DNA of 32,000 nucleotides from Bacteroidota bacterium. GTDB lineage: Bacteria > Bacteroidota > Bacteroidia > CAILMK01 > JAAYUY01. The stretch lies in the NCBI GenBank assembly GCA_016776505.1, contig JADHTG010000031.1, forward strand, positions 1 to 32,000. The letters are read 5' to 3'. Below the pieces are notes generated by a model. The model searched no databases and was not told the origin of the DNA. It was given only the letters and a program-made list of their open reading frames with translations. Within the stretch, counting starts at the first letter, position 1, and each line of letters opens with the position of its first letter. A program made the position numbers and the translations under genes. Below are positions 7,300 through 9,075 of this stretch, in pieces.

Positions 7300-7596
7300 T
7301 TAACAACAAGCTCCCGAATCCGGTCCGCCACAACAGGCTTCTGTATTGTTCAGCATACCACTTAAAATACCCGCAGCGCAACCCACACCCGACCTGACTT
7401 CTATGGCATCCTCGGGACAATTCAGGGCACAGGCACCACATTCCATGCAGTAATCCTTTCTGATAATTTTAGCCCTTCCTTTGCTGACTTCAAACACTTC
7501 ATGCGGACACACCTTCACACACATACGGCAACCATTGCATTTGTCTGCATCCAACTGAAGCGTGACAACATTTTTTAGATAAATCATTTCTCTCAT
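7300..7596 (-). CDS. hgcB: HgcB, 2[4Fe-4S] ferredoxin-like protein of mercury methylation
   Basis: CNGCRMCVKVCP and CMECGACALNCP cluster motifs, VRSGVGCAAGILSG segment, C-terminal ACCGGPDSGACC, immediately downstream of hgcA. Confidence 0.93.
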   Translation of the reverse strand: MREMIYLKNVVTLQLDADKCNGCRMCVKVCPHEVFEVSKGRAKIIRKDYCMECGACALNCPEDAIEVRSGVGCAAGILSGMLNNTEACCGGPDSGACC

Positions 7597-7602
7597 AACC
7601 TT

Positions 7603-8730
7603 CTAATTTATGAATTTCACTACAACAAAAAGAACCAGTCCAACACTGGTCAGAGAAATCTGAAAGGGGATCGCAATTTTCATTTCTATTTTTACTCCTG
7701 ACAAAGAGGTAAAGGTGGACGAACCTGTAAAATTCATAGCTGTGAAAGATGAAATTCCTGAAATAATTAATGACCAGGAAATCATTTCCAAATAGGTGTT
7801 CCCCAATTTATTGAAAAGAAGCAGCAAAGCAGAAGTGATGATGCCCATTAAAAATCCTTTTAAGGAAAAACTCCTGCCAGGGATGAAAGGAAGAAATATA
7901 GGTGTTAAAACAAGTCCTGAAACATATCCTGAGCCGATTATTAATATGGATAACAATCCTTTATCTATTGCATCGTGTAATGAAAACTCACCTTTATTAA
8001 TAGCCGAAAGGATAAAAAAGACAGCCATCACTGCAAGCAATTTGTATGAACCCATCACTAAATCCACAGGAATTAATTTGAGGCGGTCAACCAGATTGAA
8101 GCTTACTTTTCGCATTTCTTTCGTTGAGTGATGCTTCTTCCTGACAAATTCTTTGATATCTGATGCCTTAACCGGACCGTAAATCACTTTAAAACCAGGT
8201 TCAGGGTTCAAAGAAACAGGATCTGGAACAAAAGCAGCTGTGTTAGACAATGAAGGATTTGATAATATGGATTGTGCTGCTGCATTTGCAGTCAACTGTT
8301 CTACTTTGTGTGCAGAGATCCCGGTTGCTCCTAATTGAGGAACAATGATCTTCCTGTGATTAATAATCTCGCTTAGCCTGCTTAAACGAATCCTGTTGAC
8401 CAGTTCCGTGGTGCTGAATGTTCCTTTTCCTGCTGCACACCAGACGTTGATCCCCCTGGTATCTAAAACGAGTATCCAGGCATTCAATTCATCGAGATTT
8501 TTTCGAAGATGATCAAAAGATAGTTTATAATTCGCTGTAACAAATACATCTGAAGCTCCATCCGGATTCCCAACCGCATAAAGGCCGGGATTCACTTTGT
8601 AACTATTCCTGTAAAAAGCCAAACGAACCATCAAGGCACCGAACCGGTCTTTGAAATTCAATTTTGAATCTGCAACTGGAACTTCTCCGATAGAAGTTGG
8701 CAAATAAGCTGTGATATAAAATAACTTCAT
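7603..8730 (-). CDS. hgcA: HgcA, corrinoid iron-sulfur-type membrane protein of mercury methylation
   Basis: DTRGINVWCAAGKGTFSTTELV contains the diagnostic N(V/I)WCA(A/G)GK cap-helix motif; VPQLGATGISAH; hydrophobic multi-TM C-terminus with MNFTGSSTFTSLSGVKIEM; followed by hgcB. Confidence 0.95.
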   Translation of the reverse strand: MKLFYITAYLPTSIGEVPVADSKLNFKDRFGALMVRLAFYRNSYKVNPGLYAVGNPDGASDVFVTANYKLSFDHLRKNLDELNAWILVLDTRGINVWCAAGKGTFSTTELVNRIRLSRLSEIINHRKIIVPQLGATGISAHKVEQLTANAAAQSILSNPSLSNTAAFVPDPVSLNPEPGFKVIYGPVKASDIKEFVRKKHHSTKEMRKVSFNLVDRLKLIPVDLVMGSYKLLAVMAVFFILSAINKGEFSLHDAIDKGLLSILIIGSGYVSGLVLTPIFLPFIPGRSFSLKGFLMGIITSALLLLFNKLGNTYLEMISWSLIISGISSFTAMNFTGSSTFTSLSGVKIEMKIAIPFQISLTSVGLVLFVVVKFIN

Positions 8731-8748
8731 CTGATGAAAATTTAAGAT

Positions 8749-9075
8749 TTAACAACAGCTTTCCTCACAACAGTTTGTTTTTTTCAGAAATTCATTGATC
8801 AGTTTATTCATGTTTGCCAATTCATTCATATTAAGACAATAATTGACCTTCACGCCATCAATTTCTCCCTGGATCAGTTTCATTTTTTTTAATTCCGTCA
8901 GGTGTTGGCTTACAGTGGTCCGGCTCAACGGTAGCTCGTTTGAAATATCATCGGTGATGCAGGACTTTTGCTCTCCAAGGAATCTCAATATCGCCAGGCG
9001 TGCCGGATGTCCCAGGGCTTTACAAAATGCCGAGATCTGTTGCAGGTCGGTATCAAATAAGTTATTCTTTGCCAT
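8749..9075 (-). CDS. ArsR-family winged-helix transcriptional regulator, first gene of the hgc operon
   Basis: ALGHPARLAILRFL and LPLSRTTVSQHLTELKKMKLIQGE HTH region; C-terminal NCCEESCC; 18 bp upstream of the hgcA start. Confidence 0.92.
   Translation of the reverse strand: MAKNNLFDTDLQQISAFCKALGHPARLAILRFLGEQKSCITDDISNELPLSRTTVSQHLTELKKMKLIQGEIDGVKVNYCLNMNELANMNKLINEFLKKTNCCEESCC

Follow-up and report, generated by a model that had tools for sequence, protein, structure and literature searches.

In a 32,000-nucleotide stretch of DNA from an uncultured Bacteroidota bacterium (contig JADHTG010000031.1 of assembly GCA_016776505.1, positions 1 to 32,000 of the forward strand; hereafter, the window), a locus of three minus-strand genes was analyzed and very probably represents a self-regulated arsR-hgcA-hgcB operon. 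All three genes are intact and nearly touching, and each falls within the curated definition of its own family. Apart from the hgcAB pair, no genetic marker of methylmercury production by microbes is accepted, and the Bacteroidota have repeatedly been flagged as abundant, transcriptionally active, and unvalidated carriers of hgcAB. The operon is laid out as follows.

8749-9075, minus strand: arsR, ArsR/SmtB-family metalloregulator, 108 amino acids (aa)
8731-8748, minus strand: arsR-hgcA spacer, 18 bp
7603-8730, minus strand: hgcA, mercury-methylation corrinoid protein, 375 aa
7597-7602, minus strand: hgcA-hgcB gap, 6 bp
7300-7596, minus strand: hgcB, 2x[4Fe-4S] ferredoxin, 98 aa

The open reading frame (ORF) listing and the sequence showed three co-oriented ORFs with no frameshift or internal stop. 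The original prediction, made from the sequence alone, of three packed minus-strand genes with gaps of 18 bp and 6 bp was thus exact to the base, and its claim that the set was intact held as well; each hidden Markov model (HMM) score was above the family cut-off. No promoter or terminator signal was found inside the 18-bp arsR-hgcA spacer by sequence inspection and scans. Because the gaps are short and no signals were found between the genes, all three are expected to be co-transcribed. Scans for sigma-70 promoters and intrinsic terminators gave matches no more frequent than in shuffled sequences; since sigma-70 models are ill-suited to Bacteroidota promoters, the TAnnTTTG -7 consensus was used in their place. 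Neither Rfam nor tRNA scans gave any match across the full window, and a cobalamin riboswitch was absent.

The identity of HgcA was established with the NCBIfam equivalog NF040863, against which it scored 403.6 bits (cut-off, 275; E value, 5.7e-121). The fused HgcAB-like model NF043039 reached 180.8 bits, below its cut-off of 285, and the model NF003195, for the gamma subunit of acetyl-CoA decarbonylase/synthase (ACDS), or corrinoid iron-sulfur protein (CFeSP), reached 62.4 bits (cut-off, 306), aligning at profile positions 303-416 only, which is the corrinoid-binding segment. HgcB scored 120.1 bits against NF040864 (cut-off, 99; E value, 2.7e-35). In the profile searches suggested for checking the original prediction, both proteins therefore lay above the trusted cut-offs, with the paralogue models below theirs. 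The separation of HgcA from its paralogues is based on these curated cut-offs and on the ranking of folds described below. The parts of HgcA are as follows.

8290-8682, minus strand: corrinoid-binding domain at the N terminus, residues 17-147, a relative of the CFeSP large subunit
8425-8448, minus strand: cap-helix motif NVWCAAGK, residues 95-102, within GINVWCAAGK, residues 93-102
8197-8289, minus strand: variable linker, predicted disordered, residues 148-178
7606-8094, minus strand: C-terminal membrane domain of five helices, residues ~213-374

The NVWCAAGK motif ascribed to HgcA at the outset was present, and its Cys98 (codon 8437-8439) is predicted to be the lower axial cobalt ligand. Residues N95 to K102 were unchanged in 30 HgcA homologues, and 84 alignment columns were invariant overall. 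In the alignment, all catalytic residues are intact, with evident purifying selection. At residue 20 (8671-8673), HgcA has Ala, while at least 90% of the 30 relatives have Val. Pfam recognized PF03599 (CdhD) as the sole domain of HgcA, and in a sequence search of the PDB, only CFeSP chains were found among solved structures (2h9a and 4c1n). An AlphaFold2 (AF2) model built with the 30 homologues had a mean predicted local distance difference test (pLDDT) score of 81.4 and a predicted template modeling (pTM) score of 0.71. It showed an alpha/beta N-terminal domain and helices at residues 213-241, 251-278, 288-305, 313-339, and 344-374; the hydropathy profile agreed, in line with the multi-transmembrane C-terminal domain that had been claimed. 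For residues 151-175, the pLDDT score was below 50, and the linker was missing from 343-aa relatives, as seen from alignment gaps. When the model was compared with the PDB using Foldseek, the top match was 9a0b_A, the published integrative HgcAB model (E value, 1e-19; 37% identity), and the CFeSP large subunits 4c1n, 2ycl, and 2h9a ranked behind it.

For HgcB, Pfam reported ferredoxin motifs, and the two CxxCxxCxxxCP motifs, the ECGAC sequence, and the C-terminal Cys pairs that had been described were all found. The protein bears an extra pair, Cys88-Cys89, in addition to the following sites, which were assigned from the sequence.

7504-7539, minus strand: cluster motif 1, CNGCRMCVKVCP, C20/23/26/30-P31
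7414-7449, minus strand: cluster motif 2, CMECGACALNCP, C50/53/56/60-P61, including ECGAC
7378-7380, minus strand: Cys73
7303-7308, minus strand: terminal Cys97-Cys98

The upstream gene, originally taken for an ArsR-family regulator, indeed encodes a true ArsR/SmtB metalloregulator (NF033788, 62.9 bits against a cut-off of 55; E value, 1.9e-17; PF01022 [HTH_5], 35.9 bits against 22). Its cysteines are Cys39, Cys80, and a tail of Cys102, Cys103, Cys107, and Cys108 (NCCEESCC), with Thr41 and Asn78 near the first two. Among the 120 closest ArsR homologues, Cys39 was conserved in all 120 and Cys80 in 119, and position 78 was occupied by Asn in 111 and by Cys in 5. At least three Cys occurred within the last 12 residues in 79 of these 120 proteins. 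The four-Cys tail, once considered a peculiarity of the locus, was dropped as such when the wider homologue search showed it to be the norm of the subfamily.

The closest characterized protein in kind is ArArsR of Arsenicibacter rosenii (Bacteroidota), a repressor released by As(III) and methylarsenite [MAs(III)] (PMC11868830). In ArArsR, sensing of As(III) requires Cys41, Cys80, and Cys82, while methylarsenite requires just Cys41 and Cys82; the C80S mutant responds to methylarsenite only, and Cys43, Cys107, and Cys108 are each dispensable singly (PMC11868830). Cys39 and Cys80 of the window's ArsR match ArArsR Cys41 and Cys82 through the 41-residue spacing, an equivalence drawn from spacing, by which the Cys39/Asn78/Cys80 pattern equals that of the C80S mutant. 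The three-ligand type-4 As(III) site of ArArsR was thus not found, as the third ligand is replaced by Asn78. Two other known sites differed as well. Of the R773-type triad Cys32-x-Cys34-x2-Cys37, only the first Cys is kept (SCITDDIS), and of the four-Cys site of ArsR2 in Pseudodesulfovibrio mercurii ND132 (Cys47, 49, 86, and 88), one Cys per pair is kept. With respect to the C-terminal arsenite site of AfArsR, Cys95-Cys96-x5-Cys102, a C-terminal CC-x3-CC is present, at a different spacing as judged from the motifs. The subfamily may either sense two-coordinate ligands or recruit a tail thiol as a third ligand. Precedents for tail ligands are the type-2 site of AfArsR and CmtR.

Otherwise unalignable upstream regions of arsR shared a palindrome with the consensus ATGTCG-TAnnTTTG-CGACAT, or ATGwCG-TAnnTTTG-CGwCAT in degenerate form, and the invariant core CGT-N5-TTT-N-CG. 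The search pattern CGTWNNTTTNCG matched 35 times across 612 kb of related loci, and 18 of these matches (in 18 loci) preceded an arsR start by 23-41 nt, on the same strand as the gene. In the 32-kb window, the exact pattern occurred once, at the proximal site listed below. The following sites were assigned upstream of the window's arsR.

9103-9126, minus strand: predicted proximal ArsR operator, core CGTATATTTGCG at 9109-9120
9111-9118, minus strand: predicted -7 promoter box TATATTTG, the eight central bases of the palindrome, enclosed by the proximal operator
9131-9154, minus strand: distal operator-like site, core CGTATTTATACG at 9137-9148

In Bacteroidota, the sigma-A -7 consensus TAnnTTTG sits at -12 to -5 (PMC9723704), and transcription is accordingly predicted to start near 9106. 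The distal core lies 28 nt upstream of the proximal core, across the expected -33 region. This two-site layout, at a spacing of 26-29 nt, was also found in related loci L010, L011, L017, L020, L021, L043, and L167, and the distal site of L168 is a one-base variant missed by the search pattern; dual operator-like sites recurred in those loci whose ArsRs were most like that of the window. An independent line of evidence was provided by ArArsR, for which DNase I footprinting protected TTTTATCGTAATATTGCGATCACAATC, at -46 to -19 of the start codon (PMC11868830). The palindrome ATCGTAATATTGCGAT is common to this footprint and the window operator, at an equivalent position, and GTCGTATATTTGCGTC at 9107-9122 agrees with an ArArsR-type operator at the sequence level. 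Because the conserved palindrome and the independent footprint match, the predicted operator assignment is well supported by comparison and analogy. A longer arsR upstream region in L001 was rejected as a real insertion, being a run of Ns at a scaffold gap, one edge of which is duplicated. In L033 (1-145), a long (CTGAAAT)n tandem repeat takes up the stretch ahead of arsR, in place of the operator carried by relatives.

The claim that the locus belongs to a Bacteroidota genome was upheld by its relatives and by a neighboring gene. The best ~35 matches among one-genome-per-species representatives were almost all from metagenome-assembled genomes (MAGs) of Bacteroidales, Bacteroidota, or Ignavibacteriota, and a Por_Secre_tail gene of the type IX secretion system (T9SS) lies 2 kb from the operon. 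GenBank already contains the exact HgcA, HgcB, and ArsR proteins, which come from two Bacteroidota MAGs. An identical locus was found in seven independent metagenome contigs, and several ENA and Logan assemblies carry the locus. The next-closest HgcA relatives are ~60% identical.

To place the operon among related ones, translated ORFs of 80 related genome loci were searched with the window proteins. HgcB followed HgcA almost everywhere in these loci. A same-strand ArsR homologue lay upstream in about two-thirds of the Bacteroidota-like loci, mostly 0.3-3.5 kb off, and some Bacteroidales hgcAB loci had no arsR inside 4 kb. The genes between arsR and hgcA in relatives encode Thioredoxin_3, DsbD_2, an ArsP permease, ArsC of the low-molecular-weight phosphatase (LMWP) type, ACR3, rhodanese, and an ArsC-methyltransferase fusion. 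The compact arsR-hgcA-hgcB form was also found in the independent lineages L007, L013, L031, and L167-L169. ArsRs 59-63% identical to that of the window head compact arsR-hgcA-hgcB operons, which lie in other Bacteroidota neighborhoods, or arsR-arsC or arsR-arsM-acr3 operons. In a Bacteroidales MAG (L020, 1060-4730), the dual operator is followed directly by hgcA-hgcB, with no arsR between, and then by genes for thioredoxin, a DsbD-like protein, rhodanese, and ArsD; hgcAB thus comes first in an ars operon. The window operon is a pared-down form of the ArsR-headed arsenic-resistance operons that hold hgcAB in related Bacteroidales. Since one ArsR subfamily heads hgcAB, arsC, or arsM-acr3 operons, hgcAB behaves as one among several interchangeable cargoes, and the window has the minimal form.

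Two features of these relatives were noted in passing. In L017 (1731-2963), L021 (1711-2946), and L033 (471-1865), arsR and hgcA are separated by a gene in which LMWP-type ArsC is fused to an ArsM-like S-adenosylmethionine (SAM) methyltransferase; the fusion was identified by Pfam in L017 and is predicted from length and a common N terminus in L021 and L033. These loci unite SAM-dependent and corrinoid-dependent methyltransferases in one operon. L013 (SACF01000039.1), labelled as an Alphaproteobacteria MAG, holds a Bacteroidota-type arsR, operator, and hgcAB, for which mis-binning of the contig or a transfer is the probable explanation.

As reported previously, hgcAB of Bacteroidetes have been described from MAGs and a few isolates (PMC7438021, PMC10469668), and the Bacteroidetes/Ignavibacteria HgcAB group is monophyletic and highly expressed in permafrost fens (PMC7438021). 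For Bacteroidetes, among them Paludibacter jiangxiensis, ArsR-like genes beside hgcAB are published as well (bioRxiv 10.1101/2022.10.17.512643; PMC11984097). The locus is therefore one more instance of an arrangement on record, arsR-hgcAB in Bacteroidota being already known, and the significance given to it in the original prediction was overstated. Here, we add the resemblance of the regulator to the ArArsR type, the conserved palindrome, the dual sites, the embedding of hgcAB in ars operons, and the presence of two of the three arsenite ligands.

Compared with HgcA of ND132 and other validated methylators, the window HgcA shares the overall plan of a corrinoid domain with a cap-helix Cys followed by a five-helix membrane domain. 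It differs from the ND132 protein in belonging to a Bacteroidota/Ignavibacteriota clade, for which, unlike the validated methylators, no experimental activity is reported in the literature examined, and in having an extra disordered linker of ~30 residues. HgcB shares with its validated counterparts the two CX2CX2CX3CP motifs, Cys73, the C-terminal Cys pair, the gene order, and the tight spacing, and differs from the ND132 type in its second pair, Cys88-89. The corrinoid domain is homologous to the Rossmann-like domain of CFeSP/AcsC (2h9a, 4c1n, and 2ycl), with an E value of 1e-8 by sequence and 5e-7 by Foldseek, but HgcA lacks the N-terminal [4Fe-4S] domain and TIM barrel of CFeSP and has a membrane domain and a motif with Cys as the lower ligand.

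For the regulator, a first comparison is offered by ArArsR. Both proteins are from Bacteroidota, are of equal size, and have the 41-residue Cys spacing, C-terminal cysteines, and a palindrome matching the DNase footprint; each arsR leads an operon under its own control, as predicted for the window, and the operator precedes the start codon by 20-45 nt. The window ArsR differs in having Asn78 for Cys80, Thr41 for Cys43, and four tail Cys (CCx3CC) instead of two, and its operon has two operator sites instead of the one footprinted and carries hgcAB instead of arsM-arsC. A second comparison is offered by ND132, whose ArsR2 (DND132_1054) is likewise an ArsR/SmtB repressor whose gene directly precedes hgcAB and is co-transcribed with the pair; in ND132, hgcAB is repressed by ArsR2, which is arsenic-responsive (bioRxiv 10.1101/2022.10.17.512643, later AEM 2023). 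The cysteines of the two proteins lie at two common structural places, in the beta-wing and where the recognition-region helix begins, but ArsR2 has a four-Cys site, whereas the window ArsR has one Cys per pair and a Cys-rich tail. In the set of loci compared, ArsRs linked to hgcA in Desulfobacterales MAGs are just 31-34% identical to the window ArsR.

Based on established HgcAB biochemistry, HgcA would bind a corrinoid whose cobalt has Cys98 as its lower ligand, and the five helices would anchor the protein in the membrane. A methyl group would be taken onto the cobalt and handed to Hg(II), yielding methylmercury. HgcB would re-reduce the cobalt to Co(I) through its two [4Fe-4S] clusters, and its Cys73 and terminal Cys pair would probably handle Hg(II). 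An ArsR dimer would bind both palindromes, the proximal one wrapping the -7 box and the distal one covering the -33 region, so that transcription of all three genes would be blocked; such binding is suggested by comparative footprinting and by the published footprint of the homologous ArArsR. A thiophilic ligand at Cys39/Cys80, and possibly at the CCx3CC tail too, would then free the repressor. By analogy, trivalent arsenicals would be the likeliest inducers of the operon. Because Asn78 replaces the third arsenite ligand, the sensor may prefer two-coordinate ligands, e.g., methylarsenite, unless the tail gives a third thiol. The sensor keeps two of the three arsenite ligands of ArArsR and adds the CCx3CC tail, so any assignment of the inducer is tentative.

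Several points weigh against this account. The mercury methylation activity would be an extrapolation from Desulfobacterota, Firmicutes, and methanogens, to which most of the experimentally validated methylators belong, and no Bacteroidota are listed among them in the literature examined (PMC10469668). The supply of corrinoid and the methyl donor are not evident from the window. HgcA has Leu37 (8620-8622) where at least 90% of the 30 relatives carry Trp. The operator is a prediction via conservation and analogy, and no convincing intrinsic terminator was found downstream of hgcB by RNA folding (z = -1.15). With Asn78 at the equivalent of ArArsR Cys80, an arsenite response is not assured, and the residue equivalence with ArArsR itself is suggested by the conserved Cys spacing.

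The names given in GenBank point to a different identity. HgcA (MBC8343230.1, MBL6963655.1) is entered as "acetyl-CoA synthase subunit gamma," HgcB (MBC8343231.1) as "4Fe-4S binding protein," and ArsR as "winged helix-turn-helix transcriptional regulator." If these names were right, the 375-aa protein would serve acetyl-CoA synthase as its gamma (corrinoid Fe-S) subunit, and the 98-aa protein would be a generic ferredoxin. Apart from the names, there is real homology of HgcA residues 28-147 to CFeSP; the subthreshold match to the ACDS gamma model covers only the corrinoid-binding segment. Neither the N-terminal Fe-S part nor the TIM barrel is present in the protein, which has five transmembrane helices in their stead and is encoded in a neighborhood without carbon monoxide dehydrogenase/acetyl-CoA synthase (CODH/ACS) genes. 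With the HMM scores and the domain architecture refuting it, the annotation has practically no chance of being correct. A public mis-annotation is thus corrected; surveys based on annotation text would miss hgcAB in this organism. We also consider it very improbable that ArsR is merely an adjacent autoregulated gene with hgcAB outside its control. As mentioned above, some Bacteroidales hgcAB loci have no arsR nearby. Nevertheless, the same-strand 18-bp gap without a promoter or terminator signal, the repetition of the arrangement in independent lineages, the operator directly before hgcA in L020, and the co-transcription and repression seen in ND132 (10.1101/2022.10.17.512643) all argue for common control.

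The function of a genuine, ArsR-controlled hgcAB is a separate matter. HgcAB could work in arsenic or metalloid handling or in other corrinoid chemistry, such as halomethane dechlorination, with Hg methylation as a side reaction and ArsR control reflecting the true substrate. In many Bacteroidales, hgcAB lies inside ArsR-headed ars operons, after arsC or, following the ArsR operator, before thioredoxin, DsbD, and ArsD genes; the same ArsR subfamily otherwise heads arsR-arsM-acr3 and arsR-arsC operons; and in ND132, hgcAB is co-regulated with the ArsR regulon (10.1101/2022.10.17.512643). Dechlorination of CCl4 by heterologously expressed HgcAB was described in a 2026 preprint (10.64898/2026.04.26.720869), which is, however, unreviewed and deals with Desulfobacterota enzymes. 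An arsenic role is opposed by the ND132 study, in which the delta-hgcAB strain reportedly kept its arsenic resistance (10.1101/2022.10.17.512643), and by the window operon, which has shed all ars structural genes, HgcAB needing none in cis. Either role would be compatible with a capacity for Hg methylation and not exclusive of it. On balance, we regard such a primary function as rather unlikely. A sharper version, in which hgcAB is cargo of a Bacteroidota arsenic-resistance regulon, the two-Cys repressor is tuned to methylarsenite-like organometal(loid)s, and the native role of HgcAB is a corrinoid-dependent transformation of arsenicals with Hg methylation as a by-product, is quite improbable. 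If the repressor were tuned to methylarsenite, a defined inducer would be at hand for turning on methylation in the Bacteroidota hgcAB clade.

Alternatively, hgcAB may be genuine and yet give little natural Hg methylation, due to tight ArsR repression, a missing corrinoid or methyl donor, or poor uptake of Hg(II). The presence of hgcAB is no guarantee of transcription (PMC7438021), and in field metatranscriptomes, an arsR-like gene correlated with lower hgcA transcription, with lower hgcA/gyrB transcript ratios in bins carrying such a gene and acr3 and arsC nearby (PMC11984097). In ND132, raised hgcAB expression alone gave no more methylation (10.1101/2022.10.17.512643), and a validated Bacteroidota methylator is absent from the literature examined. 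In the window, however, all catalytic residues are intact with purifying selection evident, and Bacteroidetes were the top hgcA expressers in permafrost fen metatranscriptomes (PMC7438021). This alternative is therefore considered unlikely, and a self-regulated arsR-hgcA-hgcB operon is the favored reading of the locus as a whole.

What interest remains in that operon concerns the nature of the inducer and the connection of its regulation with the ArArsR type. The hgcAB-linked ArsR of this clade can be related to the footprinted operator and the mutationally mapped sensor site of ArArsR, and a concrete candidate promoter/operator (9103-9154) and a short list of candidate inducers result. These offer a handle on when Bacteroidota methylators switch on hgcAB and on why hgcAB travels with arsenic genes.

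The flanks of the cassette were analyzed for signs of mobility. The GC content of the cassette, 0.39-0.40, is equal to that of the surroundings. Direct repeats were found on the two sides of the cassette only, at 7141-7195 and 9281-9335 (55 nt; 82% identity) and, in swapped order, at 7240-7275 and 9197-9232 (36 nt; 81% identity). In addition, a palindromic element of ~95 nt (GTAGGnCCGAAT..ATTCGG ... AATCGGACCTAC), resembling repetitive extragenic palindromes (REP) or miniature inverted-repeat transposable elements (MITE), occurs in three successive intergenic regions, at 5793-5912, 7029-7124, and 9143-9190. Folding of the copy at 7020-7135 gave -38.5 kcal/mol (z = -4.0). A matching hairpin lies 30 nt past the orthologous gene for an AMP-dependent ligase in the 77%-identical relative L088 (1740-1765). 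Because the hairpin is also present in the third intergenic region and in L088, it is taken as a lineage-wide REP/MITE-like element. The flanking repeats (33-55 nt; ~82%) were rejected as a mobility signature for this reason and for the GC content equal to that of the flanks, and repeats and GC content make no case for recent transfer of the cassette. When metagenome contigs were scanned for an empty site with the flanking AMP-dependent ligase, the sole close relative was L088 (77% identity); no inference on insertion was drawn, as L088 has no further neighbor in common with the window.

Farther along the window, a GatB_N gene (12197-14215, plus strand) and a GatD_N/Asparaginase gene (14221-15615, plus strand) adjoin each other, as identified by Pfam. 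The predicted pair resembles the archaeal-type GatE/GatD amidotransferase, which is unexpected in a Bacteroidota genome.

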